A DNA stretch of 64,000 nt. Origin: Candidatus Latescibacterota bacterium. Its GTDB lineage: Bacteria > Latescibacterota > UBA2968. Both the position numbers and the translations under genes were made by a program. Under the pieces are notes generated by a model. It was given only the letters and a program-made list of their open reading frames with translations. It searched no databases and was not told the origin of the DNA. Positions 34,930 to 55,492 of this stretch are shown here, piece by piece. Location: NCBI GenBank assembly GCA_965232265.1, contig CBDDPH010000002.1:1176290-1240289 (forward strand), in the 5' to 3' direction. Each line of letters starts with the position of its first letter. Position 1 is the stretch's first letter.

Positions 34930-35143
34930 GGGATTTCCTTCTGTGTAGGGGACAGAGGTCCTTTTTTGTTCGTCTGAATATACGGGAAAATGCGCGAGGT
35001 GAAAAGCGCAACATAAGGGCGGTTGTCAAAATGGATATAAGTCGTTATACTTTTTTATCGTATTGCCAATCATGCGAATAAAGCGTAGAAATCATAGCGC
35101 AATGACGGGCGAAAGGTTTTTCGCCCCTACAATATCCACGCCC

Positions 35144-37422: not shown

Positions 37423-37540
37423 AGTTGGGGACTGGCTGTGTTGAAATACGGGCGACACGCAGAGCGCGAATCCGATAAATTCGCCGTGCAATGTCTGATG
37501 AACGCAGGTGTCCATCATCTCACTTCACAGTCCCTCTTGT

Positions 37541-37610
37541 TCATCTGCGTTCATCTGCGTTCATCTGCGGATAACCTTCACACTTCACACTTCACACTTC
37601 CTACTTCCTA
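37541..37610 (+). repeat. tandem decamer (TTCATCTGCG)x3 followed by (CACTTCA)-type repeats
   Basis: ttcatctgcgttcatctgcgttcatctgcgg ... cacttcacacttcacacttcctacttccta sits just before the ATG at 37610. Confidence 0.7.
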
Positions 37611-39146: not shown

Positions 39147-39265
39147 GGTGCTTCTCCTATTGGGTTGGTGGTGGACAGTTCCTATCTGAAGATATGGGAC
39201 AAAATTGAGTCTGTATAGCACCGCATAAATAAAATAAGAATATGGGAAAACAAACCGCCATGCAA

Positions 39266-42200
39266 GATTCAATCCTTGTTCTATTGGAATGTCCTGCTGA
39301 ATTCGCTGCGACCAGGAGATGCCGATTCGCGGTACGCGTGTTTCAATCCTTGTTCTATTGGAATGTCCTGCTGAATTCGATGCTGGCAATCAGGTTGCGG
39401 CTGAAGCAATGACGTTTCAATCCTTGTTCTATTGGAATGTCCTGCTGAATCCTAAAACGCAGTGTAGAGGAGGGCTAAAAAATGGGTTTCAATCCTTGTT
39501 CTGTTGGAATGTCCTGCTGAATGACTATATTCTAATCAAGACAGAGAGATACCCACCGTTTCAATCCTTGTTCTGTTGGAATGTCCTGCTGAATGACTAT
39601 ATTCTAATCAAGACAGAGAGATACCCACCGTTTCAATCCTTGTTCTGTTGGAATGTCCTGCTGAATACGTGTCAATTTACCGATGGGTTTGGTGCGTATG
39701 TGTTGTTTCAATCCTTGTTCTGTTGGAATGTCCTGCTGAATTCTCGGCGTATGATCATCCCAATGTCGTGCACGGTCGCGTTTCAATCCTTGTTCTGTTG
39801 GAATGTCCTGCTGAATTGGCGACGGGTGAGGAAGATTTAGACGCGCCAGAACCCGTTTCAATCCTTGTTCTGTTGGAATGTCCTGCTGAATTAACGCCGA
39901 TCTGGTCGAGCGTGCTGACGTGCTGTGTGTTTCAATCCTTGTTCTGTTGGAATGTCCTGCTGAATGATCCCAAAACGGGGATTGTGGAGAAAACCATGAA
40001 TTTGTTTCAATCCTTGTTCTGTTGGAATGTCCTGCTGAATGAGGCTATCAGATGGCTATCTCCTTGTAGATACTGACGAGTTTCAATCCTTGTTCTGTTG
40101 GAATGTCCTGCTGAATGAGATTCTGAATCAGAACTTTCCGCAGGTCGAAAAGTTTCAATCCTTGTTCTGTTGGAATGTCCTGCTGAATCCAGCCGCGCCG
40201 ATTTGCACCACCAAAACGCCCGCACGTTTCAATCCTTGTTCTGTTGAAATGTCCTGCTGAATTTCGCGTATAGCCGTGACGTGTTTTCAACTTCAGACGT
40301 TTCAATCCTTGTTCTGTTGGAATGTCCTGCTGAATTGCACATGTTTAGGGATAGAGAATTAACTGATGAGGTTTCAATCCTTGTTCTGTTGGAATGTCCT
40401 GCTGAATCCGATGCGATTGCATCGGCTATGAAGAAAATCCCTGAGATGATGTTTCAATCCTTGTTCTGTTGGAATGTCCTGCTGAATCGAGGCGCGTGAA
40501 CCGCGTTTGTTTCGTCCGTCCATCGTTTCAATCCTTGTTCTGTTGGAATGTCCTGCTGAATTGACCGCCCTGATTTTGAAACTGTATGTCCCGACCGGTT
40601 TCAATCCTTGTTCTGTTGGAATGTCCTGCTGAATGTTTGCGGTACGCGAGCGGATGTCACCCGCCAAAAGTTTCAATCCTTGTTCTGTTGGAATGTCCTG
40701 CTGAATTGGTTTTGATCTTCTTAACGTACGTGACTTCACCCCAAGTTTCAATCCTTGTTCTGTTGGAATGTCCTGCTGAATGCGCATCTTTGATAAACCA
40801 ATGTTTATAAGCCGGCCTGTTTCAATCCTTGTTCTGTTGGAATGTCCTGCTGAATCCCGCGAAAGACCATGGTCTTGAGCCACAAAGGTACGGTTTCAAT
40901 CCTTGTTCTGTTGGAATGTCCTGCTGAATCGAATCAGAAATAACACTCATGCAAATCAATTCCCCAAGTTTCAATCCTTGTTCTGTTGGAATGTCCTGCT
41001 GAATTGACTTCTTGCCCTAAGTATTGCGACAATAGTTTAGTTTCAATCCTTGTTCTGTTGGAATGTCCTGCTGAATTCGTCATATTGAGCAAAAAGTGTT
41101 TCAATCCTTGTTCTGTTGGAATGTCCTGCTGAATACGGCGGTATTCTTTTTCGCATACAATTCTTTGCGTTTCAATCCTTGTTCTGTTGGAATGTCCTGC
41201 TGAATTATTAAAATGGCATACGAAAAAATGTTGGTCGTTGTGTTTCAATCCTTGTTCTGTTGGAATGTCCTGCTGAATTTTCTTGCGTCAGCCCGTTGAT
41301 GAAGTTTCAATCCTTGTTCTGTTGGAATGTCCTGCTGAATTAGTCGGAAGTCTCGTTTATGTTTCAATCCTTGTTCTGTTGGAATGTCCTGCTGAATAAC
41401 TGTCCGAATGAGCGAGACGGAATGGGAAACTTGTTTCAATCCTTGTTCTGTTGGAACTGAATCGCCGAGAAAGCAGGATGCTCAAGAATCTGGTTTCAAT
41501 CCTTGTTCTGTTGGAATGTCCTGCTGAATGCCGCCGCAATCGGCAGGTCAACATACAGGCATTAGACGGTTTCAATCCTTGTTCTGTTGGAATGTCCTGC
41601 TGAATCGGAATCTCGTTTGATGTTCACCCGCAGTACGTGATGTTTCAATCCTTGTTCTGTTGGAATGTCCTGCTGAATGGATCAGGTATTACCCCCCGAT
41701 ATAGTAGATGAAACTGTGGTTTCAATCCTTGTTCTGTTGGAATGTCCTGCTGAATGTCATAGGCCGTCTATAGAATAACAACTATGAGTATGGTTTCAAT
41801 CCTTGTTCTGTTGGAATGTCCTGCTGAATAAAGATTGCCCTTGTCTTTTCGCGCCTTGTAGATGGAAGTTTCAATCCTTGTTCTGTTGGAATGTCCTGCT
41901 GAATGTTGCAGTCAATCGCAGAGAAAAGCTGAAGGGATGCGGAGTTTCAATCCTTGTTCTGTTGGAATGTCCTGCTGAATTCAGTCAACTTATACTGCCC
42001 CACAAGAGCATCGCAGTTTCAATCCTTGTTCTGTTGGAATGTCCTGCTGAATAAATCGTTTGTGTGAGGCGGTTGAGGTTGAAAAAGGTTTCAATCCTTG
42101 TTCTGTTGGAATGTCCTGCTGAATTTTTCCTTTCTTCACGCCTTTGTTCCTATTGCATTCGTTTCAATCCTTGTTCTGTTGGAATGTCCTGCTGAATGAA

Positions 42201-42686
42201 TTTTTTGAGAATATACCCATTGAGTTTCAACCTGTTGGAATGTCCTGCTGAATAAACATCCATCAAAACCGACCAGACTAATGGTTTCAATCCTTGTTCT
42301 GTTGGAATGTCCTGCTGAATCGACGTCTAAGTTTCAATCCTTGTTCTGTTGGAATGTCCTGCTAAGCTGTTTTTCAATCGCATGTTTCAATCCTTGTTCT
42401 GTTGGAATGTCCTGCTGAATGGGGCGTGATTGATTACGGTTTCAATCCTTGTTCTGTTGGAATGTCCTGCTGAATACGGCGTTTAAGTTGGACATGGTAC
42501 CCGTTTCAATCCTTGTTCTGTTGGAATGTCCTGCTGAATGTAGAGGAGGAAATAGTTGGGATGAGGTTTTCAAACGCGTTTCAATCCTTGTTCTGTTGGA
42601 ATGTCCTGCTGAATTTTTTGCACCTGTGCCATGTGGTTTCACCCCCTTTGTTTCAATCCTTGTTCTGTTGGAATGTCCTGCTGAAT
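39266..42686 (-). CRISPR. CRISPR array: 49 repeats (37 bp; three internally or terminally truncated), 48 spacers of 10-43 bp
   Basis: Plus-strand repeat GTTTCAATCCTTGTTCTGTTGGAATGTCCTGCTGAAT. Its reverse complement ends in ATTGAAAC (the classic 8-nt crRNA 5' handle), so the array is transcribed on the minus strand like the cas genes. Degenerate terminal repeats (CTATTGG variants) at 39266-39450 mark the trailer end. The AT-rich leader is at 42701-42857. Confidence 0.95.
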
Positions 42687-42700
42687 CGCATTTTATGTAT

Positions 42701-42857
42701 ATCGTTTGAAACGACAACAAGTTACGCGAATTGACTGACGGATAAAATCTCGGTTTGATACGCCTTTTTTGCTTCTAAACGCAGACATTTAGCCATCCTT
42801 TGCAGAATGGAAATTTATCAACATATTGATTTTTAACGGATTACATCCTTGTTGTTT
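42701..42857 (-). promoter_or_regulatory. CRISPR leader
   Basis: AT-rich 157-bp region between cas4 and the first repeat. Confidence 0.55.
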
Positions 42858-43454
42858 TTACACACAAATATTTTTGTAGCAACAGTCACCACATTTAGTG
42901 CGGTTAGGTGTCTTTTTGGGCAGTCGCCCGGTTTGAATAATGCCGAGAATTTCAGCTACAATTTGTTGTGCAGTGATTTTTTCTTCCTCGCCAATCGGAA
43001 CTTCTACCAGACGACTCCCACCACGAATGTAGGCAATATATCCACGGGATACGGGCTTTTGGTAGGCTTCGTGGGCCAGTAGCCCGTAGAGTATAATTTG
43101 AATGCGATGGGTTTTGAAAGCGTGCTCGCGATAGGGTGAATATTTGTAATCCAGAGGCGCAAGGCTACCATCTTCCAAAGTCAAGACTTCATCTACAACC
43201 CCGCGCACGCCAAGGCTGGGCGATGCCAGATACACATTGAGATCGCGATCCACAACGCCGATTTTTTTACGCAAATAAAACCGGTTTTCTGTTTCGCGGC
43301 GTTTGTGGACTTCGCGGCCTTTGAGCACTTTGAAGCGTCGGTCTTCAAACTGTGGGATGTTGAGCACATTCATGTAGTAGGTAAAACGCGGACAGTAGAT
43401 ATGTTCAATCACCTCAGAGGGCGTGATCATGATGGTTGTTTCGGTATCGCTCAC
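42858..43454 (-). CDS. cas4: CRISPR-associated exonuclease Cas4
   Basis: RecB-like nuclease motifs and the 4-Cys cluster (N-terminal C and C-terminal CGDCCYKNIC). Confidence 0.85.
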   Translation of the reverse strand: MSDTETTIMITPSEVIEHIYCPRFTYYMNVLNIPQFEDRRFKVLKGREVHKRRETENRFYLRKKIGVVDRDLNVYLASPSLGVRGVVDEVLTLEDGSLAPLDYKYSPYREHAFKTHRIQIILYGLLAHEAYQKPVSRGYIAYIRGGSRLVEVPIGEEEKITAQQIVAEILGIIQTGRLPKKTPNRTKCGDCCYKNICV

Positions 43455-43756
43455 AGGAATAAACTCCTCACGTCGTCTGTAACCATCTTTTGATCAAATG
43501 CCTGGCCCTGCAAGATCACTTTGCGAAAGTCCATCGCGCACATGGGAAAAATGTACACGCTGTCGGTTTCCTCATCGATCTGGTCTTCAATACGCATTGA
43601 AAGTTCGTCCAAGCGGTTGTGTTTGACCGTGCCGAGAAAGACGGATTTTTGAACGCGATAGAGACCGGCTTCCTGACAGGCTTTGACCACATGCCGACGA
43701 ATTTTGTTGTTGGAAATGTCGTAGAGTATCCAAGTGAGCGATTCATCGGATTTCAT
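43451..43756 (-). CDS. cas2: CRISPR-associated endoribonuclease Cas2
   Basis: ~100-aa protein LTWILYDISNNKIRRHVVKACQEAGLYRVQKSVF typical of Cas2. Start set at the internal ATG at 43756. Confidence 0.85.
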   Translation of the reverse strand: MKSDESLTWILYDISNNKIRRHVVKACQEAGLYRVQKSVFLGTVKHNRLDELSMRIEDQIDEETDSVYIFPMCAMDFRKVILQGQAFDQKMVTDDVRSLFL

Positions 43757-43760
43757 GGGA

Positions 43761-44807
43761 TCATTCCTTTGTGTTTGAGTCTTGTTCGAGCAGATCATTG
43801 GCGATGCGGTGTAGATCAAATTGGATGCTGTCTCGCCGCGTGATGTTGCGTCCCCGATAGCGAATGGCTGTGTCGAGATAATCGGTAAATGATTCGATGA
43901 GTACAGCCTTGCCCTCTTTGTTCAGGGTAAGGCCGTTGCTCAATTTGTCGAATTGGTTTTGTTTGATTTTTCGCGCGGAAAAGAGGCCGATAACGGTTTC
44001 GTCGGCCCAGATGCGATATTGTTCAATGAGGTCAAAAACGAGAGATGGCTTGTTGTAGTGGTCGGTATGGATAAAGCCGATGTAGGGATCGAGTCCCGAG
44101 AGCAAACAGGCGCGTTCAACGATGCCGTAGAGCATGCCATAGGCGTAATTGAGCAGGCAGTTAAAAGGGTCTTGGGCCGGGTTGCGGCTGCGTCCATCAA
44201 AGCGATAGTGGACGGGTAATAGCAGGGATACTGCCGCCCAATAGGTGCGCCCAGCCCGACCTTCCAGACCGAGCAAACTCTGGCGCATGGGGTCAATACC
44301 AATGAACTCCGTATCAGCACACGCATTGTCTGCGAGGTCCTGCGTTTGCTCTTTGAGCGTTTTGAGACTGCCAATGGCTTCGGTAAGCGGTGCCGAAAGC
44401 CGCGTGCGCCGGTCGCGCATGCGCGTGAGCAATGCGATCTGATTGTCAAATTTGCGCCCGATCCAGCCGAGGGCGAGTTGCACGCCGAGGTCGGTTTGCG
44501 CTACCGCGAGTTGCAAGCGGCGGATAGCTGTTGTAGAACCTGGGCGGCCATGCCACACGCGCCCAAAGGGATCGCCATATTTGTCGAGAAAGAGGATGTC
44601 GATATTCTTCTCTACAGCCAGTTGCACAGCATCTGACGAAAATGCCGCACCCGTTGAGATGAGAATAGAACGCACTTTGCGAGCGGAAATTTCAGTTGAT
44701 TGATCCTTCACTTTGACCTGAAATAACTCTCCCCGCCGACTCAAATACGCGCCGTAAGTGTTGAGCACGAGTTGCAAGATGTTCTCCCGTAGATGATACT
44801 GAAACAC
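43761..44807 (-). CDS. cas1: CRISPR-associated endonuclease Cas1
   Basis: 348 aa with Cas1 fold motifs (integrase active-site region ...HTDHYNKPSLVFDLIEQYR). Confidence 0.9.
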   Translation of the reverse strand: MFQYHLRENILQLVLNTYGAYLSRRGELFQVKVKDQSTEISARKVRSILISTGAAFSSDAVQLAVEKNIDILFLDKYGDPFGRVWHGRPGSTTAIRRLQLAVAQTDLGVQLALGWIGRKFDNQIALLTRMRDRRTRLSAPLTEAIGSLKTLKEQTQDLADNACADTEFIGIDPMRQSLLGLEGRAGRTYWAAVSLLLPVHYRFDGRSRNPAQDPFNCLLNYAYGMLYGIVERACLLSGLDPYIGFIHTDHYNKPSLVFDLIEQYRIWADETVIGLFSARKIKQNQFDKLSNGLTLNKEGKAVLIESFTDYLDTAIRYRGRNITRRDSIQFDLHRIANDLLEQDSNTKE

Positions 44808-44844
44808 ACCTGTCTATCACAAGCGTTCAAAAAAAACTTAAAAC

Positions 44845-44872
44845 TTGATATTCGTATGGTATTGGTTATAAT
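44845..44872 (+). promoter_or_regulatory. strong sigma-70-like promoter on the plus strand inside the cas operon
   Basis: TTGATA (44845-44850), 16-bp spacer, TATAAT (44867-44872). Confidence 0.4.
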
Positions 44873-44879
44873 AAAATTG

Positions 44880-45003
44880 CCAGTGGACGAAATTCGGCTC
44901 CATAGCCGTGTGATTGCCGGGCTGCGGTTCGCGCAATCCTATATCCCTAGCTTTTTATTTTTTTCTCGCCACGCCAAAGCCGCTACATTAAGCGGCTTTT
45001 TTT
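44880..45003 (+). ncRNA. candidate ~125-nt small RNA (promoter to terminator), antisense orientation relative to the cas genes
   Basis: Bounded by the promoter above and an intrinsic-terminator-like hairpin AAAGCCGCT-acatta-AGCGGCTTT plus TTTT (44976-45003). Holds no ATG-initiated ORF, only a GTG frame of 42 codons. Confidence 0.25.
44976..45003 (+). terminator. rho-independent terminator-like hairpin with U-tract (plus strand)
   Basis: 9-bp stem, 6-nt loop and 7 T residues. Confidence 0.45.
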
Positions 45004-45054
45004 GTGTGTAATACACACCATAAGTGTTGAGCCTGAGTTTCACAATAGTCCCTC

Positions 45055-45717
45055 CTAAACTTCACGCATCAAACCAAAACCATTGGACGTCAATTTACCG
45101 ATGCCAAGACCAGTAGGCAGAATCATATTGGAAACAAAGGATACTTTTACCCCCTTAAATACGACACCGTGATGTTTTAATGATAGAATTGAGAAGTTCA
45201 GGACACGAGTCATCAGACGTTCCGTGAGATAAATACCAATTCCTTTACATAGTGAGAGATAATTTCCATTCAGGATTTTCTCCAAAAGCTTTCTCCGGCT
45301 TTCAAATTTCGGTTCTTTCTGAAATATTGCGTGGTTCTTTTCATTAAGTGCCAGCCAGGGAGTAATTGAGCGATAACTGATTAGATTGTCTGATAGTCCG
45401 ATAACTGCTATCTCGTCTTCCAACTCTGCGCCCATAATTTGATATTGAATGCCTCCTATTCTGAGTGTATGACCTTGGCTGTAAATCTCTTGCAAAATTT
45501 GAAGGCCATCGTCAAAGGAAATGAGTTGTGGGAGGTTATTCAAGACGATATAGCGAACTCTGGGAGAGCGATAATCAAATTGATCTCCCTTATGATTATG
45601 TAATACTGGTCGATCAGAAAATGCGCCTGTTATTGCTCTTCGAAGTTCCGATCCATGATGCTTAAAGGGACGATCAGTGTAAATTTTTAAGCGTCGGATA
45701 TGTATATGTTCTGACAT
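45055..45717 (-). CDS. cas6: CRISPR-associated endoribonuclease Cas6
   Basis: C-terminal glycine-rich loop GLGIGKLTSNGFG and RAMP-like fold. Confidence 0.75.
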   Translation of the reverse strand: MSEHIHIRRLKIYTDRPFKHHGSELRRAITGAFSDRPVLHNHKGDQFDYRSPRVRYIVLNNLPQLISFDDGLQILQEIYSQGHTLRIGGIQYQIMGAELEDEIAVIGLSDNLISYRSITPWLALNEKNHAIFQKEPKFESRRKLLEKILNGNYLSLCKGIGIYLTERLMTRVLNFSILSLKHHGVVFKGVKVSFVSNMILPTGLGIGKLTSNGFGLMREV

Positions 45718-45761
45718 CTCAATTTCCTATAATGATTACGCCTGAAATGATAGAGGCGAGA

Positions 45762-48137
45762 TCAAAAACACACCAAATTCGGCTCTTTTTCTGCCTTATA
45801 CCCAAACCTTTTATCATAGCCTCCGAGTTGGGTATCCAACATACACAGGTCGTCAACAGCATCGCTTGCATACACTTGTACAATGCGCTCCATCAAAGCA
45901 GCACGGATTTTATAGAATTCCATCTTGCGTTTTATTGGATTTTCGATTTCTTGGATCCCGAGATATTGATCCCAAATTTCTCGATCACCATTATCCTGGA
46001 CGATATAATAAGATTGTTGGGGTAATTCCTCGATAAGCTGAAAACGATCTTCTACCTCTTCAAACTGTCCACAGGCCAGCAGACGATCAATAGGTTCTTC
46101 ACTGTTATGTGTGCGTTCATAAACCATTTTGAAATAAGATTCTCCCAACTCCAAAAATTGAGATTCCTTGACTTCTTCATATTGGCTTAGGAGCTCTTGC
46201 GTTGCACCTATCAATACTGGGCTATAAATCCGTGTGAACTGTTTCTCTCGTTCATCTATTAAAGACCAAACTCTTACAATTCCTCCATCACCATCTCCAT
46301 GCCGATTACAACGTCCCGATGTTTGAATAATCGCGTCTAATGGTGCAAGATCCCTTTCAATCCGATCTACACTCAGATCAACACCTGCTTCTATCAATTG
46401 TGTCGTAATGACCAAAACGGGTTGATCTGAAGCCAGTGCTTTGCCAATGTCTTCAATCCGATCTTTGCGGTCTTTAGGCGTCAGCAGTGCTGAAAGCGGG
46501 TAGATGCAAAATCCTTCGATGTTGACCTTTTTTTCAAATATTTCTGTTAGCTCACCCACAAGCTTTCGATAATTGACCACAATCATACGACTGAGATCCG
46601 GATTTTGATGAATTTCTTCGACAATTTCATTTATAAAACTCTCAAGAAGTGTATTCTCAGTTGCCCGATTGACAAGACACACACGCGATAGTTTTTGATA
46701 ATATTCTGGATGTTTGGGTAAAAGCTCTCTGGACATATCGGGTGTAAAAATCAACGGTTTTGTGGCTGTCATTAGTATGAAGCGCGTTTCAAGACATCGG
46801 CTCATCACTTGCAATATATTGCGAATAGCTCGCCAGTATTTCGGAGGAATGGCCTGCACCTCATCGAGAATGACAATGGCTCTACGCAGCGTTGGCAAGC
46901 GTTTGAGATTCCGATTTCTGCCTGTGAAAAACGTATGAAGAAATTGATAAAATGTGGTCACTACAAGTTCTGATTGCCAGGTTTCAACGAAAAGCTCGGC
47001 CCCATCAGGATCAAACTCCGGGTCTAAAGAGCGGTATTTCATATCTGTGAGATGGTGATGTTTTAAGAGCAAATCCGTTGTTTCGGCAAGTCCTCCATGT
47101 TCTAATACTTTTCGATAGACATCGTGATTTTGGTCAATAATCGCAGTAAAAGGCAAGCAATAGATGATACGCGGGTTTTCTTGATAGACTTCATGCAATT
47201 CATGGCGCAGACGAATTGCTGCATCCAAAGCAGTCAAAGTTTTTCCCGATCCGGTTGGTGCGGTAAGCGTAAATAATTTCTCATCTGAATGAGCAGATAA
47301 CTCACATAAAACATCATCTCTTATACGGTCTCTCGGTTCATCAAGAGGAGACGGTTTATGGTCAGAGTCTTGTTTTAAGTGCATCAAATATTGAGAGACA
47401 AGAGAATCGGGAATTGCCAGACGACTGAATTCTGTTTCTCCTGTTGCGGTATGGATTTTATCCATCTGTAAAAGACTGCCAAATCCAAATAAGAAATCCA
47501 CCGCTTGATCAAATTGCTCCAAACAGACCTCCTGATCGTTATTTGGAAAAGCTTTTCGCAGACGAAAGGGAGATATGTCCTGTACAGCTTTCCGCAGAAC
47601 CGATCCATTGAGATCAGGCACTTCAAAGTGAAGGTCGAACTCAAGCAAGGTCTTCCTTAGCCATTGTGTAATACCAAAGAGGTCCATGCTGTTAATTTGA
47701 CGAGCAAATGTCCCTTGTGGGGCAGAATCTTCTCGAAGATGGCCTCTGGCCTCGGCATAATAGTCCGTCCACGACTTTCGCAGATTGCCATGGTGTTTCA
47801 TAACAGATGTAATCACCGAGAGTTGGAATTGATAGGCAGCTGTCTGGTCGGGTGCTTGGACGCTTTGACTAATCAACCAACCAATGATCGCAGAAACAAA
47901 TGAATGGTTGGAGAGTTCAGACTTTTCTCCTTTACGGCCCGGTTGAACGCGCTCTTGAAACCAAAAGGTCGCTTTACCCAAATCATGGACGAGGGCAGAC
48001 AATAGTGCAGCCTGGGAAGGGAGAGACCGGCTACCTTTCCACAGTTGATTTACACCTTTGGCGACCTCTGTAAGGTGCGTTTGCAGAAAGTCGTCTGGCG
48101 GATGCGCCAAACATTCAGAAAAACAGTATTTGGTCAT
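45762..48137 (-). CDS. cas3: CRISPR-associated helicase/nuclease Cas3 (HD + SF2 helicase)
   Basis: HD domain (LVHDLGKATFWFQ), helicase motif I APTGSGKT and DEAH-like DEVQ. Confidence 0.9.
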   Translation of the reverse strand: MTKYCFSECLAHPPDDFLQTHLTEVAKGVNQLWKGSRSLPSQAALLSALVHDLGKATFWFQERVQPGRKGEKSELSNHSFVSAIIGWLISQSVQAPDQTAAYQFQLSVITSVMKHHGNLRKSWTDYYAEARGHLREDSAPQGTFARQINSMDLFGITQWLRKTLLEFDLHFEVPDLNGSVLRKAVQDISPFRLRKAFPNNDQEVCLEQFDQAVDFLFGFGSLLQMDKIHTATGETEFSRLAIPDSLVSQYLMHLKQDSDHKPSPLDEPRDRIRDDVLCELSAHSDEKLFTLTAPTGSGKTLTALDAAIRLRHELHEVYQENPRIIYCLPFTAIIDQNHDVYRKVLEHGGLAETTDLLLKHHHLTDMKYRSLDPEFDPDGAELFVETWQSELVVTTFYQFLHTFFTGRNRNLKRLPTLRRAIVILDEVQAIPPKYWRAIRNILQVMSRCLETRFILMTATKPLIFTPDMSRELLPKHPEYYQKLSRVCLVNRATENTLLESFINEIVEEIHQNPDLSRMIVVNYRKLVGELTEIFEKKVNIEGFCIYPLSALLTPKDRKDRIEDIGKALASDQPVLVITTQLIEAGVDLSVDRIERDLAPLDAIIQTSGRCNRHGDGDGGIVRVWSLIDEREKQFTRIYSPVLIGATQELLSQYEEVKESQFLELGESYFKMVYERTHNSEEPIDRLLACGQFEEVEDRFQLIEELPQQSYYIVQDNGDREIWDQYLGIQEIENPIKRKMEFYKIRAALMERIVQVYASDAVDDLCMLDTQLGGYDKRFGYKAEKEPNLVCF

Positions 48138-48801
48138 CGCCCACCTCATAAGCTTGATCGGTTTCAACCGTTATTGAATCACCATCCTCTGCGACAACGA
48201 CCTCCCGGTAATCTACAACTGTTCTATCTGGTTGCATTTGTGCTGGTACTCGATAGCGAACATAGCACCGACCCGGTTCATATCTGCAATTTTCTTCGGG
48301 ATCAGGTACAACAGAGGCAATATTACACTCCGTCTGCGAAAGTAGCTGGGCCTCAAATGCACCGACAAAAACAACATTTGCGATACATTGTGCAAGGCCA
48401 AGAGACGGTGTATAGACTGTTCTGCCCGTCCGAAGTTGGTCCTCCAGGTCTTGCATGGCTTCATCTGTGGCTTCTGCAATATAAATCCGAAAAGCTGGAT
48501 CAATAAGAAATTCATAGGGATACTGACCCCGTAAAGCGCTGTCTTTCTTTCTCGGATCAGGTTCTAAGCGGAGATTTAGCCCTGTCCTGTATTTTCGGGT
48601 TGCGCGGAGCAAGCGAATACCGACACGCACATTTTCCCATCCAATTTTAGTCAGGTATTCTTCCTTTCCATAACCAACAATAGCACCCGTAAGCCCCAAA
48701 ATGGTCGGTGGTGGTGGAAAAGGATAAGTTACAGGAGAAGCAGGCGCATACGGTTTGCGAAAATGTCCATAAGGCCCACTCACATCGAATACAATGGTGT
48801 G
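48115..48801 (-). CDS. cas5: CRISPR-associated protein Cas5
   Basis: N-terminus IVFDVSGPYGHFRKPYA typical of Cas5. Confidence 0.8.
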   Translation of the reverse strand, partial: HTIVFDVSGPYGHFRKPYAPASPVTYPFPPPPTILGLTGAIVGYGKEEYLTKIGWENVRVGIRLLRATRKYRTGLNLRLEPDPRKKDSALRGQYPYEFLIDPAFRIYIAEATDEAMQDLEDQLRTGRTVYTPSLGLAQCIANVVFVGAFEAQLLSQTECNIASVVPDPEENCRYEPGRCYVRYRVPAQMQPDRTVVDYREVVVAEDGDSITVETDQAYEVGDDQILFF

Positions 48802-48808
48802 CATTAGA

Positions 48809-49795
48809 TCACCCAATGGTCAAGGGGGTTGATTGCAGGTCACGACTTACAGCCAGTGATGTAAAATCGCCTTCACTATCTCCGTCTCTAAGTTTAAGGC
48901 GAGAATCCTGAACAATCTCCAATCCTTCAATATCATCTTTAAGCTCGCTAAGACCATCGAGCAATTGTGTGACGTTGATTTCATAATCATCAATCGAACG
49001 AATAGCTATGTCCTCTTTTTCGCTTGTCAAAGAGATTCGACCAGAAAGGTCGCCCAAGCGTCGTCCATTGGCGTAGCTTATCACCAATAGCAAAAGAGGT
49101 TGATGGCCCATCTTTGATCGGCTGATCAGTGATTCCGTCCCCTTCCAGAGTCCTTCGAACAATAACGAAACGTCATCTTCCGATAATTCAGTTGTCTGCG
49201 CTGCGATTTCATTGACAATGCCATACGCAGATATAAGAGCATAAGGGAGCATGTGGTCTTCACGAAAAGATTTCTGAGTGGCATTCTTCCTTGATGCAAA
49301 ACCTGCTGTTCCTTGTATAAGCTGCGGACTTACACGATGCAATGAGCGATTGAATCCTGAAAACTGGACTGGTCCTGTTAGACGTATAGATGACTTTTTT
49401 TTGCTACTTTGTTCCACTGGTAGAGTTGCTCCAAAAAGCCTTGCATCAATACAACGTTCCAAGATGATGCCACGGACTTTCCTGACCATTTCCGTAATTG
49501 TATCGGCTTTGGTCACGCCCGCTTCCTCAAGAAAATCATCACAACGACCTTTTCCATCTTTGAGATACCCTTGTTCATCTTCTGTATCTCTGACAAGGAT
49601 TTCAAGGTCTTTGGTTTGAAACAAATAATCTCGCACAGTTCTCTTTATCCTCACGTCGGTTACAGTTGCCACTCCAGTTTCGGGATCGGTACGCGGTTTG
49701 TTTTCATCAAGGGGATCACCATTGGGATTACAGTCTTTTGTTTCGTACAGAAATAGAATTTCCATACGGTTTTTAATCGAATTTTGATCAGCCAT
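48809..49795 (-). CDS. cas7: CRISPR-associated protein Cas7 (Csh2/DevR family)
   Basis: ILFLYETKDCNPNGDPLDENKPR signature. Confidence 0.85.
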   Translation of the reverse strand: MADQNSIKNRMEILFLYETKDCNPNGDPLDENKPRTDPETGVATVTDVRIKRTVRDYLFQTKDLEILVRDTEDEQGYLKDGKGRCDDFLEEAGVTKADTITEMVRKVRGIILERCIDARLFGATLPVEQSSKKKSSIRLTGPVQFSGFNRSLHRVSPQLIQGTAGFASRKNATQKSFREDHMLPYALISAYGIVNEIAAQTTELSEDDVSLLFEGLWKGTESLISRSKMGHQPLLLLVISYANGRRLGDLSGRISLTSEKEDIAIRSIDDYEINVTQLLDGLSELKDDIEGLEIVQDSRLKLRDGDSEGDFTSLAVSRDLQSTPLTIG

Positions 49796-49796
49796 T

Positions 49797-51581
49797 TTAG
49801 TCTCCTTCTTCTTCAGTTAAGACAGCATTTTTATCTGTTTCCCGGATTTTACCTGCAAGGCTCATGCCCAGTGTAAAAGCAAAAGTCGATTCTTCGTCAG
49901 AGATATTCCATTCTTCGCCGCATTTAATCCACGCTTCTGCGAGTTGCGGATCAAGTGTTTTAGCGACCAATCCAAAGCTATTATACTGGTGCAATTTAGT
50001 TTGTGCCTCGGGATAAATCTGCTGGAGTTTCCGACGATCCATTTTTATACCCTGAACTTTTTTTAAAAACGGTGTCCGTTTATCGAGGTTCTGATATTGA
50101 ACGGATGTCACTGCGCTAACATAACAGCCGGTCAGAAAAGCAACGACTTTTTCTTGGCAATCAAAAAACTCAGGATGATCTGTTACATACTTTCCATACA
50201 CATTGTCGGATTCTACCATTGTTACACCTCCTTTCGGTGGGGTTAAAATATCAAGAAGACTTAGAAAGCGATATGTCGCCCAAGCATCTCGGACGGTAAA
50301 TATGGCTTTATCCGGTTCTCTTTTGTAAGATGCGAGAATAACGGATACAACATCTCGCAAAAATACCTCACGAGCAATTTTGCTTGTGCGACCAGCGAAA
50401 ATTTGGTCAACATAAGTCAAGAACTGCTTCTGGCTACTTTTGTCCGTTCTTGTGCCCGTAAATTGGCGTAAGGTTTTCAGGGTAAAACCGTAGGTCTTAT
50501 TCTTACCAAAAACCAATAGAGGATCGGAATCTATCTGGCTTTTGATACGGTATATTTCTTGAATGCGTGAAGGTAAAACAGTCGGAATTTCAGCGGTAAT
50601 TCTCCAAGCGGCATTCTTTTTTTGAAAAAAGATCAGGGACAAGATAATCTCATCTTTGTCTCCAGAAACATCAGCGATTGCTTCCAGAATCTCATCTTCA
50701 GAGTTTGTAATTGTCTTCAAGGCATCCTTCTTAAGCGAAATGCCTCGTTCGCGTTTCTCCAATTCTTCAATGACATAGTGCCTCAATTCAGGGTTGTGAA
50801 TTTGGGGCAAAAGCAGATACAATTCTCCTGCTAAGTTGAATTGGAGATTTGAATTGACAAAATTCCAACCTTTAGACACCGCAAGCATACAATAATCACA
50901 TACAGGAAAATTTCGTGTCGCAGCACTATGATCCATACCGCCCGCGATTAAACCTCTTTTATCGAGATTATAGCACGAGATCAATGAGAAATTTCCATAT
51001 ACCTTATCTGCCAGTTTGCCACATACAGAACAAACTTGATTTTCAGCTTCTAATGGCTGTTTCTGGACGCGCCCATATCGGGAGAGTACCTCAGAGATTG
51101 CGAATTGTTTGACATATTCGTTTTCGTAAAATGGGACTGGTTTAGTACCTTCAAGCCAACTCAAATACACAAAAGGATATTTTTCATGTGTATCAAGCTT
51201 TTCAAGCTCATTTTTAATATCCTCAGCAATTTGAGGCTCATTATATCCGTCCAGAATATTATCTATCTGGTCCTGAACGGATTCAGCCTGTGGTGATTGA
51301 TTAAAAGTCTCTAAACATTTCCGAAGTCTGTGTGTAACTTTCTTAGAACAGCCTGCATATTTTGAGATGGCCAATGGATCAAATCCATTGGGAGCACCTT
51401 TAATATAGATCACATTTTTGCTACCTTCTGTTATTATGATGTTTTTGTATTGACCAACTTCATCGAAACAGACAGCCAATCCATAATGATATGACGGTTC
51501 CAGACCTTCATTCAAAAGTTTAATACGATCACTTTCATCGCCATAACGAATCTGAGAAATGTGAAGTAGCCGTTCAAACAT
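49797..51581 (-). CDS. cas8b: CRISPR-associated large subunit Cas8b (Csh1-like)
   Basis: 594 aa and the first gene of the cas operon. Cys-rich segment CSVCGK...CDYC typical of Cas8b. AAGGA RBS. Confidence 0.7.
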   Translation of the reverse strand: MFERLLHISQIRYGDESDRIKLLNEGLEPSYHYGLAVCFDEVGQYKNIIITEGSKNVIYIKGAPNGFDPLAISKYAGCSKKVTHRLRKCLETFNQSPQAESVQDQIDNILDGYNEPQIAEDIKNELEKLDTHEKYPFVYLSWLEGTKPVPFYENEYVKQFAISEVLSRYGRVQKQPLEAENQVCSVCGKLADKVYGNFSLISCYNLDKRGLIAGGMDHSAATRNFPVCDYCMLAVSKGWNFVNSNLQFNLAGELYLLLPQIHNPELRHYVIEELEKRERGISLKKDALKTITNSEDEILEAIADVSGDKDEIILSLIFFQKKNAAWRITAEIPTVLPSRIQEIYRIKSQIDSDPLLVFGKNKTYGFTLKTLRQFTGTRTDKSSQKQFLTYVDQIFAGRTSKIAREVFLRDVVSVILASYKREPDKAIFTVRDAWATYRFLSLLDILTPPKGGVTMVESDNVYGKYVTDHPEFFDCQEKVVAFLTGCYVSAVTSVQYQNLDKRTPFLKKVQGIKMDRRKLQQIYPEAQTKLHQYNSFGLVAKTLDPQLAEAWIKCGEEWNISDEESTFAFTLGMSLAGKIRETDKNAVLTEEEGD

Positions 51582-51611
51582 GATTTTTTCCTTTTGTTAT
51601 AAAGTGATGAT

Positions 51612-51707
51612 TCCTAAATCCTTGTTTTAATGGATTTTGCAGACTAATTTTTCATTTACAAACAAACCATGCTTCAATCCTTGTTTTGATAGAGATTGAT
51701 TGGCCAG
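51612..51707 (-). repeat. degenerate CRISPR repeat - 22-nt spacer-like - degenerate repeat unit upstream of cas8b
   Basis: 51612-51648 tcctaaatccttgttttaatggattttgcagactaat (~23/37 identical to the repeat). 51671-51707 gcttcaatccttgttttgatagag... (20/23 identical over the first 23 nt). Same orientation as the main array; sits 31 nt upstream of the cas8b ATG. Confidence 0.55.
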
Positions 51708-51770
51708 TAATGTTCACCAGATATAGAAAATAAAAGTTGCTTTTTTGGGGAGGTTGGCTATATTTTTTGT

Positions 51771-51836
51771 CAGCGACCAGAATGGGCCGGTGCTAACCGA
51801 CCCGGGACTAATGTCCCTGGCCGCTACTTTTTTTAT
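51771..51836 (+). other. structured GC-rich element with multiple hairpins followed by a T-run
   Basis: cagcgacc...gggccggtgctaaccgaccc gggactaatgtccc tggccgct then ctttttttatttct, between the DUF3800 stop and the mini-array. Confidence 0.3.
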
Positions 51837-51871
51837 TTCTACGCCAATACTTCCGAAAACTTTCCCCCTTC

Positions 51872-52633
51872 CTATGGGCTAGCGGGAACGAAACGAGGGA
51901 GATTTGTGCTCGGGTACCATGTATCCCCGTCATGGATTAACGGCTCTATGCCTGCAATACCGCTTTCATCTATAGCTTTAATCGGAAAACCTGCTTTTTG
52001 CTCTTCCTTTTTTCGTGCGCTTAAGACACACAGATCGCATAGTTGTAGCATCAGACTCTTTGAAGATTCAATAAAGAACCCCTTTTCTATAACGTGGTCG
52101 AGTTGCAGCGCCCCCCCTTCACGCAGCATGCGGATTGACTCCTCGACATCGTAAATCACCTCTTTGTTCTCGTCCGAAATAAAAATGCCCAACTCTTGGC
52201 CTGGAAGGTCTTGTAAATAGTGATTAATAATCTGGGCTACCAGCCTAAAGACCATGACATGTGGATTGATCGGCCTATTTGATCCAAAAGATCGTAGCCA
52301 ATTCTTAAAGTGACTTTTGACAACAGCCCTGTATATGAGTTTTAGATTATGGCGGCGTGCAATGTCAAACCAGGTGTCGCGCAGGGCTACGCGATCACTA
52401 ATACTCATACCATCAAAGTCTTTTCTCCCTGAACGAATATCTGTACCGTGAATCTCAAAGTTGTCTCGTCGGGGAGGCGGAAAGTGGTCATCTATCACAT
52501 TCTGCAACTCCTGCTCGATATTGGTCCAAATATGATCTGGAATGATCAGTGCAGCCAATACAAAAATGGGTTGTTGTGTATCGTCTAAATTGTTGCCGGT
52601 ATTACCAGATTCATCAAAATAAATGAGATGCAT
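51872..52633 (-). CDS. DUF3800 domain protein
   Basis: N-terminal MHLIYFDESGNTG motif diagnostic of DUF3800. Start set at this Met. Confidence 0.65.
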   Translation of the reverse strand: MHLIYFDESGNTGNNLDDTQQPIFVLAALIIPDHIWTNIEQELQNVIDDHFPPPRRDNFEIHGTDIRSGRKDFDGMSISDRVALRDTWFDIARRHNLKLIYRAVVKSHFKNWLRSFGSNRPINPHVMVFRLVAQIINHYLQDLPGQELGIFISDENKEVIYDVEESIRMLREGGALQLDHVIEKGFFIESSKSLMLQLCDLCVLSARKKEEQKAGFPIKAIDESGIAGIEPLIHDGDTWYPSTNLPRFVPASP

Positions 52634-52715
52634 ATCAAATAGTGCCCTATTGTCTTCAGAGATTTGGGTGATCACATAGACAAAGTAATTTGGACGACTA
52701 TTTAGAAACATACCA

Positions 52716-53720
52716 TTAAATCAATACAGTGTCAACCCGTTTTTTTTTCTGCTCATACATCCTCCCCGCCGCGATCATATCCTTTGCGATGACCTGTCGC
52801 AACGCCTCTGGTTCTATCACCTCGCAATCTGCGCCCCAGCCTCTGATCCACGGTTTCATCTCCAGCGTGTGGCTCACGGTTAAGGTCATGAGACAGCCGC
52901 CGTCTGGCAGGTCGTCAATGGCATCGACGCAGGGCCAGTCCGATTCCCGCACGCGGTATGCCACATTGGGCGAAAAGCGGAGTTTGACGACAATGCGCTC
53001 ATCGCCCCCCATCACGCCCCATGCTTGCGTGAGATAATCGTAGGGATCGAAATGGTCTCGGATCTGATAGGACGAGTCGAGGATTTTGACCTGCTGCACG
53101 CGCTCGATTTTGAACTCTCGGATGTCGCGGCGCAGATGGTCATACCCAATCACATAACAGGCATATCCCACGGGCGACGGCTCGATAAAATAGGGGTCAA
53201 AGACGCGCCTGGTGGTTTCATCGGTGTATGGATTGTAATACGTCAAACGCACCTGTTTGCGTTCAGACCACGCGCGGGTAAAGGTCTCCAAAATGCGGAT
53301 GTACTCGCGATGCGGTCTGCGCTTGCGCGTGGCTTCGGCGGTTCGGGCGATGTGTTGACCGATTGATTCGGGGAGTGCGCTGGCGAGTTTTTCAAGTGCC
53401 GAGACGACATGGGGATTGTGTTTGTCGCTGTGTGCTGAGAGCAGCCGGGCTGAGAGATACAGTGCGAGGGACTCGTGCAGATTTACGCGCACAGATGTGA
53501 TATAGCGGTCTTTGTGCATGCCGAATCTGCCATTGCGTTCCCAGATGGGCACGTTGAGCTTGGAAAGGGAGTCGATATCGCGATAGATGGTGCTGCGGTG
53601 ACAGCGCAGTTTTTTGCCCAATTCCAAAGCTGTAAGTCCCTGAGCAGATTGAAACAGGATGCGACCCAGTTCAATGAGTCGCTCTGAACGCTTAAATTGT
53701 TGTGTATTGTTATTTGGCAT
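52716..53720 (-). CDS. HTH + WYL-domain transcriptional regulator (YafY-like)
   Basis: N-terminal winged HTH (LIELGRILFQSAQGLTALELGKKLRCHRSTIYRDIDSL) and central WYL domain (VRLTYYNPYTDETTRRVFDPYFIEP...YVIGYDHLRRDIREFKIERV). Start placed at MPNNNTQQFKRSERL. Local coordinates are uncertain by 1-3 nt. Confidence 0.75.
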   Translation of the reverse strand: MPNNNTQQFKRSERLIELGRILFQSAQGLTALELGKKLRCHRSTIYRDIDSLSKLNVPIWERNGRFGMHKDRYITSVRVNLHESLALYLSARLLSAHSDKHNPHVVSALEKLASALPESIGQHIARTAEATRKRRPHREYIRILETFTRAWSERKQVRLTYYNPYTDETTRRVFDPYFIEPSPVGYACYVIGYDHLRRDIREFKIERVQQVKILDSSYQIRDHFDPYDYLTQAWGVMGGDERIVVKLRFSPNVAYRVRESDWPCVDAIDDLPDGGCLMTLTVSHTLEMKPWIRGWGADCEVIEPEALRQVIAKDMIAAGRMYEQKKKRVDTVLI

Positions 53721-54014
53721 AGTGGTCTCCGCAGATAGTATAATGGGGGTGTGTTCCACATGTTGCGACAGATTTTAAAAAATATGATCGCAATTTTATT
53801 TTACCCAAAAAAAATAAAGCCGAGGGGATGTGTTTATCCCACCGGCTAATAAGTTCAGAGATTGAAAGGTTGAGTACTACCAAAGGGCAAGAGCTATGGG
53901 ATGACGGAACATATATGCACAGCGCGCTATTCCGTCAACCGCTGTTCTTTTAGTTTGCATCTAACTTTGAAGGCCACAACCTGGCGTCCATCCACCTGAG
54001 CATTTTGCGCTGTG

Positions 54015-54073
54015 CAAGCCCCCCGCAGGGGCGCCCTTTTTTTGCTTCATTTTTTTGGGCGCGCAAAAAAATG
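54015..54073. other. two adjacent palindromes (GC-rich hairpin + T-run; AT-rich cttcattttttt-gggcgcgc-aaaaaaatgaag)
   Basis: Located about 40 nt downstream of the 97-aa gene stop and in the divergent WYL promoter region. Confidence 0.35.
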
Positions 54074-54110
54074 AAGTCGCCGAAGGCATGAAAAAAAATA
54101 ATAAAAAACT

Positions 54111-54404
54111 TTATACGTCATTCCAATTCGAGGTGGTTAGAGAGCGATGGGTCATGCCTACGATTTTACCAGTATGGTCATTGATTTCAACGACTTTGAA
54201 CGAACGATTCTTCCAGTCTTTTCCCCCGAGGTTGGCTGCTAGGCTCCGCCGTTCCCAGGGGCGAGAGAACCCTATGGTTATTTTCCAGGCATTTGCTGTT
54301 TCGTCGAATACTACCTCTTCAAGTCCTAAGTCCTGAACTTCCTCGTCGGCAAACAGTTCGGTTATGTATTTGTTCGCCGTCCGCACGGCTTCTTTTACGT
54401 TCAT
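54111..54404 (-). CDS. hypothetical small protein (97 aa)
   Basis: Clean ORF directly downstream of the nuclease gene on the same strand. No recognisable family. Confidence 0.5.
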   Translation of the reverse strand: MNVKEAVRTANKYITELFADEEVQDLGLEEVVFDETANAWKITIGFSRPWERRSLAANLGGKDWKNRSFKVVEINDHTGKIVGMTHRSLTTSNWNDV

Positions 54405-54502: not shown

Positions 54503-55492
54503 TTAAAAAAGTGAGAGTTGGACGGGGTCTTGTTCTGGGGTGGGTTGTCTGGCAGGTCTCTCATCGGGATAGCACACGGCTTTGAAGGGGCAGGTGGTAC
54601 ACAGGTGGGTATTGGTCGTCATTGGGAAGGTGTCTTGCGAAGCGGTGTTTTGCTCGGGATCGTCGAGAAGCGCACGCATTTTCTGGACGCTCTCGGTGAC
54701 AAAGATACGGGTCTGGTCGAGGTCGTCGGGCGAAAGTTCCAGAGTGCGTTCGGCGTTGGTTTGCAGGTAGATGTCCTGGAGTTGCAGGTCGGATAATGCC
54801 ACGCCCCACTGCGAGGTGGCGTACAGGGCGTACACCGCGAGTTGGTGGCGGTCGGCCTGGCGTTCGCGCCCGGTTTTCCAGTCGAAGACAGAGACCGATT
54901 GGGCGCGGCGAATTGCCACGTCGAGCACGACCCAGATTTTGGTACTGACTTGACCCGAGTCAGCACATGCATTGGCAAGGGTAAAATCTGAGAGTTTTTC
55001 GATGGTGAGATAGTCTTCGGGACGGGCAGCTTGCAGGGTGGCGTAGGCATCGGAGGCAAAAAAACCATTGAGGCTTGTGGAGATGTGATTGGTGGAAGCG
55101 ATCTGGTCGGTTTCTGTAAAGGGTTCGTTGTAATAGTGTTCAAACAGATTGGTGTATTGAGAGGCCGAATAGCGCCAGAGGCGATCTCGGGAGGCTTGCA
55201 GGTGTTGGTGGAATAAATTTTGCGCGTAGGTCTCAACGGCAAAGGGGAGAATATTGCGTCCCAATTTCAGGGCATTGAGCGCGTTGCTGATGGCGTCGTG
55301 AACCACGGTACCGACGAGTTGCGGTACTGTGGTTATTTTTTTCAGGCGGTAGAGCAGTTGGGCCTGCGCGTCTGCGCCTTTGTCCCAGCCGCCCCAACTG
55401 CCGTAGTAGTTGAAGTAGTATTGTCGCTTGCACGATTCAAACATGCGATGGCGCGATGGCGACCAGGAAAATTCGTTTTGGAAATTGGACAT
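54503..55492 (-). CDS. Cas4-like PD-(D/E)XK nuclease with 4-Cys Fe-S cluster (solo, outside the cas operon)
   Basis: N-terminal Cys (FESCKRQYYF), motifs VVLDVAI / SVFDWKTG (D...D-x-K), QLAVYALY (QhxxY) and C-terminal CTTCPFKAVC. Start ATG is 3 nt after the aroA stop. Confidence 0.7.
   Translation of the reverse strand: MSNFQNEFSWSPSRHRMFESCKRQYYFNYYGSWGGWDKGADAQAQLLYRLKKITTVPQLVGTVVHDAISNALNALKLGRNILPFAVETYAQNLFHQHLQASRDRLWRYSASQYTNLFEHYYNEPFTETDQIASTNHISTSLNGFFASDAYATLQAARPEDYLTIEKLSDFTLANACADSGQVSTKIWVVLDVAIRRAQSVSVFDWKTGRERQADRHQLAVYALYATSQWGVALSDLQLQDIYLQTNAERTLELSPDDLDQTRIFVTESVQKMRALLDDPEQNTASQDTFPMTTNTHLCTTCPFKAVCYPDERPARQPTPEQDPVQLSLF

Follow-up and report, generated by a model that had tools for sequence, protein, structure and literature searches.

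A DUF3800 gene and its structured RNA at a putatively CRISPR-repressed promoter in a bacterial type I-B cas locus

Degenerate CRISPR mini-arrays can encode RNAs that join Cascade and, by limited pairing next to the protospacer-adjacent motif (PAM), park the complex on a promoter without triggering Cas3; this is the principle of CreA and CreR (bioRxiv 10.1101/2023.03.10.532045; 10.1101/2023.03.03.530964). CRISPR-repressed toxins so far comprise one RNA toxin type, CreT of type I-B haloarchaea (bioRxiv 10.1101/2023.03.10.532045), and one protein, the KilAC protein CreP of type I-F Acinetobacter (bioRxiv 10.1101/2024.01.05.574328). CreR, which is widespread among type I-B systems, represses cas promoters, and a single CreA is able to repress a toxin gene along with cas genes. 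A 2025 review (PMC12737573) asks whether other CRISPR types and cellular targets exist. Here we describe a bacterial type I-B case in a 64,000-nt stretch of a Candidatus Latescibacterota genome (assembly GCA_965232265.1, contig CBDDPH010000002.1, positions 1,176,290 to 1,240,289; hereafter the window), in which a mini-CRISPR upstream of cas8b matches the promoter of a neighboring DUF3800 gene. DUF3800 has no experimentally established function so far; its known associations are with retrons, with loci of Cas12a2/a3 and Cas13, and with no fewer than 11 orphan structured RNAs. Judged by sequence and by analogy with the described systems, the arrangement is the signature of CreA/CreR-type Cascade repression.

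The locus reads, on the minus strand, WYL regulator, DUF3800, structured RNA motif, mini-array, cas8b operon and CRISPR array (Table 1). An earlier note on this stretch had placed the WYL and DUF3800 open reading frames (ORFs) here, co-directional with the cas operon, and the coordinates and, by Pfam, the domains were borne out; it had further proposed that the two genes may form a sensor-regulator module or a separate small defense module. That adjacency alone was misleading: the informative links proved to be two non-coding elements, the mini-array and the RNA.

The mini-array consists of two degenerate repeats around a 22-nt pseudo-spacer, ATGGTTTGTTTGTAAATGAAAA (51670-51649), and ends about 30 nt before the cas8b ATG. 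The first repeat, psiR1 (51707-51671), keeps the 5' handle ATTGAAGC and ends in ...AACAAGGATTGAAGC, against ...AACAAGGATTGAAAC in the repeat of the main array; the second, psiR2 (51648-51612), is identical to that repeat at 23 of 37 positions and has a weak match to the Rfam family CRISPR-DR7 (E 0.018). The pseudo-spacer is conserved in six cas-linked loci across three cas architectures, and is still conserved where Cas8b is undetectable by phmmer (L002) and where the operon is cas6-first with a DevR-type Cas7 (L095). The order DUF3800, RNA, mini-array, cas is likewise kept across the three architectures, including the cas6-first operon and a divergent effector module.

A partial-match search with the pseudo-spacer led, in each of the six loci, to the same site 60-90 nt upstream of the DUF3800 start. 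In the window, TTA (52719-52717) is followed by ATGGTATGTTTCTAAATAGTCG (52716-52695), with which spacer positions 1-5, 7-11 and 13-17 pair and positions 6, 12 and 18 do not. Type I Cascade pairs with this five-plus-one periodicity, every sixth base being flipped out. None of the six loci has a match at position 6 or 12, where spacer and target both vary; the paired positions 1-5, 7-11 and 13-15 (up to 17) are invariant. Scored over the 15 pairing positions, this site is the sole 15/15 match in 64 kb besides the spacer itself, and none of 200 composition-preserving shuffles reached 15. CrePA likewise excludes position 12 from pairing (bioRxiv 10.1101/2024.01.05.574328). The motif preceding the target is TTA at six of seven target sites and TTG at the seventh.

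The target covers the -10 box of a sigma-70-like DUF3800 promoter, which has a -35 element TTGACA (52735-52730), a 17-nt spacer and a TG-extended -10 element TATGTT (52712-52707), matching at 10 of 12 positions plus the TG. This promoter is conserved in all seven cas-linked loci and is absent upstream of the non-CRISPR homologues, which directly follow other genes. Alignment with 30 homologues places the DUF3800 start at the ATG at 52633 (MHLIYFDESG); the ATG of a longer 279-aa ORF (51872-52711), at 52711, falls within the predicted -10 box, which makes the short start the real one.

The second non-coding element lies at the 3' end of the DUF3800 gene. The window RNA has a 9-bp outer stem, P1 (AGCGGCCAG/CUGGUCGCU), around two hairpins and lies about 45 nt past the DUF3800 stop; its fold energy is -35.5 kcal/mol (z = -4.1). 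A covariance model, R1, built from 16 sequences has a single match in the window (81 bits). All 87 of 87 DUF3800 loci gave exactly one match each, invariably at the 3' end of the gene and on its sense strand; the model found nothing in a DUF3800-free control locus (L097) or elsewhere in 1.3 Mb. In an independent metagenome set 46 of 54 loci matched, the misses being contig-end truncations and five distant homologues (22-25% identity); with both sets combined the motif accompanies 133 of 141 homologous genes and occurs nowhere else in 1.6 Mb. Among 85 distinct sequences, 94.8% of cells were paired, against 26-43% with slid partners, and 11 of the 21 pairs showed compensatory two-sided changes; the covariation score was 0.26, against 0.01-0.05 for slid controls, and was reached by none of 500 shuffles. 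By these comparisons the three-stem RNA is a constant, conserved partner of DUF3800. The GC-rich hairpin of the earlier note is thus a structured element, as it had been described, and more than the separator that it had been taken for.

Because a G.U and a U.G pair are conserved in 80 and 66 of the 85 sequences, the sense strand is the RNA strand; antisense transcription would turn these pairs into A.C mismatches, gives a fold of -28.1 kcal/mol against -35.5 for the sense strand, and scores only about 16 bits with the covariance model. The motif sits at the stop codon of every homologue viewed by eye, in any neighborhood, and in most homologues its 5' half is at the same time coding sequence, for the C-terminal ...KK(x)RPG. 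The ORFs of the cas-linked clade have an earlier stop, with the motif about 45 nt beyond it, and its conservation there is therefore not a coding effect. We rejected a terminator, as no U-tract follows the motif and it lies between co-directional genes in restriction-modification (R-M) operons. Side observations concern what follows it: a tail, A(A/G)TATAGC(C), stands 5-10 nt after the motif (window 51740-51766) in cas-linked and Planctomycetota-type loci, and in the cas-linked clade AAAGCAAC(T/C)(T/A)TT comes after this tail.

Weinberg et al. 2017 (PMC5737381) described 11 unrelated RNA motifs with no known function, DUF3800-I to XI, that are tied to DUF3800 genes. The window motif shares with these a structured, covarying RNA strictly linked to DUF3800 and the pattern of different protein subfamilies having different RNAs, since the distant homologues here are without it; it differs in matching nothing in Rfam 15, a result that sets it apart from the motifs in Rfam only, and in lying always on the sense strand, overlapping the stop or just after it. 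Among the Rfam 15 families, DUF3800-I and DUF3800-IX included, none matched the motif, whether at gathering score (the window and 20 loci) or with E relaxed to 10 (51400-54200). Two further identities were tried and rejected. A type III toxin-antitoxin system needs tandem RNA repeats upstream of the toxin and a terminator, whereas the window RNA is single-copy, lies at or after the stop and has no repeats; and no reverse transcriptase family, as a type VII retron would have, was seen among the Pfam-annotated genes flanking DUF3800, whether in the window, in loci where genes had been called or across the neighbor census.

The DUF3800 protein matches PF12686 at 52.4 bits against a cut-off of 21. 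D7, E8, D154 and D200 (the last in a QxxD motif) are invariant, as are YFDESG and QLCD, in 31 aligned sequences. The AlphaFold model (predicted local distance difference test 83, predicted template-modeling (TM) score 0.85) had RNase HII, RNase HIII and human RNase H2A as its top Foldseek matches (1EKE, 2DFH, 3PUF; E 1e-4 to 1e-2, probability 1.0, TM 0.39-0.48), which answers the question raised in the earlier note, whether the fold is RNase H-like, with a predicted yes. YFDESG resembles the first, DE-bearing strand of type 2 RNase H. We therefore predict, from model and alignment, that DUF3800 is an RNase H2-like nuclease. An RNase H-like fold has also been assigned to the DUF3800 of type VII retrons, where it is an associated protein or fused domain (PMC7736814), and to TPR-DUF3800 proteins adjoining Cas12a2 (PMC10910872); in the 2025 CRISPR classification, DUF3800 figures among the accessory nucleases of some V-A2 and VI-F loci.

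Close homologues (more than 580, about 50-60% identity) occur in Planctomycetota, Verrucomicrobiota, Omnitrophota, Latescibacterota and other phyla; a metagenome contig scan for further cas-linked relatives gave only homologues of at most 58% identity. Across 80 genomes, about 32 loci have a DNA methyltransferase gene directly downstream on the same strand (Eco57I/MmeI type 19, N6_Mtase 9, N6_N4 4), and the gene upstream is often a helicase or restriction subunit (at least about 10; ResIII 10, with SNF2, HsdR and PLD), as in L004 and L006, where the order is PLD-SNF2 helicase, DUF3800, MmeI-like methylase. The earlier statement that DUF3800 recurs in defense neighborhoods agrees with this census. 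Elsewhere DUF3800 stands alone amid housekeeping genes or has a DUF2442 gene as its partner. By its genomic distribution, the family is mainly a passenger of defense operons, the DUF3800-RNA unit moving between genomes as a block. Two layouts may be recorded alongside: the R-M arrangement, typical of this subfamily with its RNA (L004, L006 and about 30 of the loci L015-L094), recalls latent nucleases of the PrrC/RloC type embedded in R-M operons; and in Thermoguttaceae (L009-L014, e.g. L009 9747-10789) DUF3800 overlaps an upstream 87-aa DUF2442 gene by 10 nt in housekeeping surroundings, which looks like a toxin-antitoxin module.

The WYL regulator follows a distribution of its own. A profile hidden Markov model found WYL within 10 kb of DUF3800 in 2 of 80 species-genome loci, and the 6-kb flanks of the metagenome set held it in 1 distinct locus of 54, 2 kb off and on the opposite strand; taken together, about 3 of the 134 homologous loci that fall outside the cas-linked lineage have WYL near DUF3800. 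No relatives of the window Cas proteins were found in the 80 species-genome loci. Clusters at 90% identity contain 78 members for WYL and 3 for DUF3800. Within the lineage, WYL is present in five cas-linked DUF3800 loci besides the window (L001, L096, L152, L153 and kin), whereas L002 and L095 (DUF3800 82% and 79% identical) keep DUF3800, RNA, mini-array and cas and have lost WYL. These two hold no WYL protein remnants, only about 15 nt resembling the WYL 3' end; because of this vestige, the adjacency is probably ancestral in the cas-linked clade and WYL was later lost. As a side observation, the gene in its place in L002 (458-772) and L095 (4392-4934) matches the uracil-DNA glycosylase superfamily weakly, below threshold (E 2e-4 to 6e-4). 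The strong sigma-70-like promoter at the WYL stop codon also makes it probable that WYL and DUF3800 are not one transcription unit. The gene-neighborhood comparison that the earlier note had proposed thus returned no conserved linkage outside the cas-linked lineage, and the sequence comparisons do not support a conserved WYL-DUF3800 sensor-regulator pair or two-gene module.

That WYL is a cas-linked regulator, as the same note had held, is by comparison well borne out. Its Pfam domains run, N- to C-terminal, HTH_11 (E 1e-8), WYL (4e-15) and WCX (1e-18), which fits an HTH-WYL-WCX order, and its top PADLOC match is the N-terminal 326 of 1009 positions of the 'Cas3c' model (E 8e-90); CRISPR-associated WYL models come next. 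The Cas3c match suggests that this WYL clade exists in a Cas3-fused form as well. Homologues adjoin type I-B operons in the window, L001, L096 and L153; a relative at 80% identity (L097) heads a type I-E operon, and one at 66% (L155) lies 4 kb from a cas6-first I-B operon, both in loci without DUF3800. The type I-E operon of L097 carries an IS21-type element (transposase and IstB; 14016-16276) between cas3 and cse1. We conclude that WYL is a separate cas-associated regulator, independent of the DUF3800 unit.

HTH-WYL regulators such as BrxR, CapW and the CRISPR-linked WYL proteins stand at the head of defense operons, have a palindrome in their own promoter region and are autoregulated. The window clade shares with BrxR and CapW the domain order, the position at an operon head and the promoter palindrome; it differs in being tied to type I cas operons and in the Cas3 fusion of its PADLOC model. 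In all the WYL homologues examined, a palindrome lies 40-50 nt upstream of the start, though sequence and spacing differ (TTGTCGCA-N5-TGCGACAA in L155; GTGTAGCGA-AAG-TCGCAACAC in L001 and L097). In the window the half-sites lie 40-75 nt upstream of the WYL start and include GTCGCAAC at 53762-53769; a search for operators there, also suggested earlier, thus yielded a candidate site (Table 1), and WYL is probably, by sequence and analogy, autoregulated through it. GTCGCAAC occurs just twice in 64 kb: the WYL promoter has one copy, and the other lies about 60 nt upstream of the DUF3800 -35 box, amid further TTGCGA/TCGCAA half-sites. Such half-sites are found in the 3' ends of DUF3800-linked WYL genes only, while WYL genes without DUF3800 encode the same amino acids; the pattern leaves room for a weakly indicated WYL input into the DUF3800 promoter, weakly since the loci are close relatives. 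Compared with L001, L096, L152 and L153, the window WYL ORF has lost the stop codon of its relatives (...GRMYExx*) and runs 11 codons further, through the DUF3800 -35 box, to a TAA overlapping the PAM-like TTA.

From the anatomy, conservation, pairing pattern, RNA covariation and fold described above we infer a course of events that includes Cascade binding, repression, toxicity and a role for the RNA. Cas6b and Cascade would process and load the mini-array transcript like a CRISPR RNA (crRNA), the predicted product carrying the handle ATTGAAGC and ATGGTTTG...; pairing at 15 of the first 17 positions after TTA would be enough for Cascade binding and not for Cas3 cutting, and Cascade parked on the -10 box would keep DUF3800 off. 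Were Cascade lost, diluted by a crRNA burst or blocked by an anti-CRISPR, the promoter would open and DUF3800 would be made, as would, by read-through, the downstream cas genes; the 3' RNA could serve as antidote, cofactor or autoregulatory site. By sequence and analogy, two roles are the most likely for DUF3800: an effector repressed by Cascade, as in CrePA, or the leading gene of a cas operon that represses itself. On balance, and with little better than even confidence, we favor the former: a growth-arresting or abortive effector that would guard CRISPR in the manner of CrePA and CreTA, with the 3' RNA as its cognate regulator or antidote. Analogy speaks for a guard, as DUF3800 accompanies retrons and sits inside R-M operons like PrrC. 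By extension, and rather doubtfully, DUF3800-RNA units might be guard modules in general, RNase H2-like toxins held by a cis-encoded RNA and wired into R-M or Cascade repression, firing when the host system is lost or inhibited by phage.

Several points weigh against this reading. From the DUF3800 stop to cas8b we found no separate mini-array promoter (no sigma-70-like site in 51708-51871, only conserved weak TAnATC hexamers) and no terminator after DUF3800, by a simple and insensitive promoter scan that a weak mini-array promoter may escape; DUF3800, mini-array and cas8b may therefore be one transcript, which would favor plain cas autoregulation. One transcript would also be awkward for a lethal toxin, as its antidote RNA would come from the promoter that it represses. 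No protospacers from which the PAM of the system could be read were found for four spacers scanned against IMG/VR, with N at every sixth position, or for the whole array in BLAST against phage genomes. The structural matches are modest (TM 0.4-0.5), and the six loci share a common descent (79-94% protein identity), so that they do not count as six independent observations. CreR-type autoregulation only, in which the DUF3800 promoter would drive everything from DUF3800 through RNA and mini-array to cas8b onward and DUF3800 would be a harmless accessory nuclease, acting for instance on RNA:DNA hybrids in interference or adaptation, is accordingly a serious possibility, if one we think less than probable. 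The closeness of the mini-array to cas8b, the spread of CreR autorepression in type I-B, the ability of one CreA to repress toxin and cas together, and the accessory listing of DUF3800 in V-A2 and VI-F loci all agree with it. Against it, the same DUF3800-RNA unit occurs outside the clade without cas genes, in R-M operons, alone or with DUF2442, so that its function is not Cascade-specific; DUF3800 is associated or fused in type VII retrons; and the missing mini-array promoter may be one that the scan overlooked. Between a toxic guard and the first gene of an autorepressed operon we prefer the guard, a choice that sequence alone does not settle.

The other explanations fare worse. In the model built on the earlier note WYL would sense a ligand and, acting at sites near the DUF3800 promoter, control either DUF3800 or the cas operon; the adjacency kept in five close relatives, the second GTCGCAAC copy, the restriction of the half-sites to DUF3800-linked WYL genes and the 3'-end vestige in L002 and L095 are what it can draw on. 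We consider it improbable, given the linkage in only about 3 of 134 other loci, the WYL relatives that flank I-E and I-B operons without DUF3800, the unequal clusters, the promoter that DUF3800 has of its own and the loss of WYL from two loci that keep everything else; the half-site pattern could reflect shared descent among genes 85-91% identical. That there is no functional link at all, the locus being a defense island of unrelated genes with a decaying array remnant and a generic mRNA 3' stabilizer, would suit the variable slot upstream, where HEPN-MNT pairs and other genes come and go, and a main array that is itself irregular. It is very improbable, as a decaying spacer is not expected to be conserved in six loci, to match a promoter and to be mismatched only at 6, 12 and 18, while the RNA shows compensatory changes and a strict one-to-one tie to one protein subfamily and is not a terminator in R-M operons.

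A few observations concern the surroundings. The main CRISPR array (39265-42860) has several spacers of just 18-27 nt, truncated or fused repeats in three units, and two identical adjacent spacers, 41 and 42 (GGTGGGTATCTCTCTGTCTTGATTAGAATATAGTC). Between aroA and the WYL-cas block, on the minus strand at 54503-55492 and syntenic in L001, L096 and L152, lies a gene for a Cas4-like nuclease of the PD-(D/E)XK type that has C-terminal cysteines (PADLOC: Aga_Cas4-like_Nuc at E 4e-25, Cas4 models at E 1e-6), a second one besides the cas4 of the operon. The 90%-identity cluster that includes aroA has Gemmatimonadota as its named members. The slot between this gene and WYL varies: relatives hold MNT and HEPN pairs or other small genes (L001 7762-8850; L152 1753-2504; L153 57-536), and the window holds solely a 97-aa ORF without a family match (54111-54404). 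Between that ORF and WYL a possible small RNA gene (53806-53938, minus strand) has a promoter-like TTGACG-N17-TATATG (53938-53910), then about 60 nt, and a terminator hairpin GCCGGTGGGAT...ATCCCCTCGGC with a T-run (about 53846-53806) that is kept in L096 and L001; its Rfam matches, wcaG and mmgR, were insignificant (E 3-5). The region 25000-38000 of the window has positive GC skew throughout (0.1-0.35), raised GC content (0.53-0.59) and large minus-strand ORFs of up to 1094 aa.

Table 1. Features of the locus, in window coordinates
Feature	Position	Strand	Basis
HTH-WYL-WCX regulator, 334 aa from ATG at 53720; longer ORF to 53759	52716..53720	minus	Pfam, PADLOC; exact protein on record as called gene
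Operator-like inverted half-sites TTGCGA-N19-TCGCAA	53763..53793	minus	candidate autoregulatory site
Sigma-70-like DUF3800 promoter	52707..52735	minus	promoter scan
Mini-array pseudo-spacer target, PAM-like TTA + ATGGTATGTTTCTAAATAGTCG	52695..52719	minus	partial-match search
DUF3800 protein, 253 aa, predicted RNase H2-like nuclease	51872..52633	minus	Pfam PF12686, alignment, AlphaFold, Foldseek
DUF3800-associated structured RNA motif, DUF3800 3' untranslated region	51767..51830	minus	fold and covariance model
Mini-CRISPR (CreA/CreR-like), two repeats and pseudo-spacer	51612..51707	minus	sequence; conserved in six loci
cas8b	49797-51581	minus	first gene of type I-B cas operon
Type I-B cas operon: cas8b, cas7, cas5, cas3, cas6b, cas1, cas2, cas4	42858..51581	minus	Pfam, PADLOC, NCBIfam
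Cognate CRISPR array, 37-nt repeat ATTCAGCAGGACATTCCAACAGAACAAGGATTGAAAC (minus-strand reading), about 46-49 copies	39265..~42800	minus	

We suggest that the locus is a promising place to learn what DUF3800 does and what its RNAs are for, as it offers a defined promoter, a guide, an RNA partner and four predicted catalytic residues. If true, a guard role would give a function to a dozen orphan DUF3800-associated RNA classes and would add a nuclease-plus-RNA cargo to the family of CRISPR-repressed toxins. The RNA motif appears to be new, having no Rfam 15 match; the CreTA/CrePA/CreR principle is already known.

The closest described system is CrePA of Acinetobacter (bioRxiv 10.1101/2024.01.05.574328), with which the window shares a degenerate two-repeat mini-CRISPR in a cas locus, a target in the promoter of an adjacent protein-coding cargo, a match over about the first 17-19 nt after the PAM with mismatch at the 6n position, and an ORF 60-120 bp downstream of the target. 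It differs in subtype (I-F, against I-B here), in cargo (a 103-aa KilAC protein, against a 253-aa RNase H2-like DUF3800 with its own structured RNA), and in placement, the CrePA module lying between cas3 and csy1 and that of the window upstream of cas8b with no separate creA promoter evident. CreTA and CreR (bioRxiv 10.1101/2023.03.10.532045; Shmakov et al. 10.1101/2023.03.03.530964) have in common with the window locus partial promoter complementarity, a spacer conserved among related loci, a psiR1 that keeps its 5' handle, and cargo and cas genes that may be repressed together. CreTA is of the same subtype, I-B, in haloarchaea, whereas the window host is bacterial; its cargo is a small toxic RNA, whereas here it would be a protein gene with a non-cas promoter about 1 kb upstream of cas8b. 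CreR-type Cas-regulating RNAs are known in I-B, I-E and V-A. The type VII retron DUF3800 (PMC7736814) shares the fold and the N-terminal DE motif; the retron proteins are reported without the Q of QxxD and with DEED, against DEDD here, and control here would apparently be transcriptional, through Cascade. PrrC and RloC, finally, are likewise nuclease genes inside another defense system, plausibly held inactive by the host system, and differ in their anticodon-nuclease domain, which the DUF3800 protein does not have.

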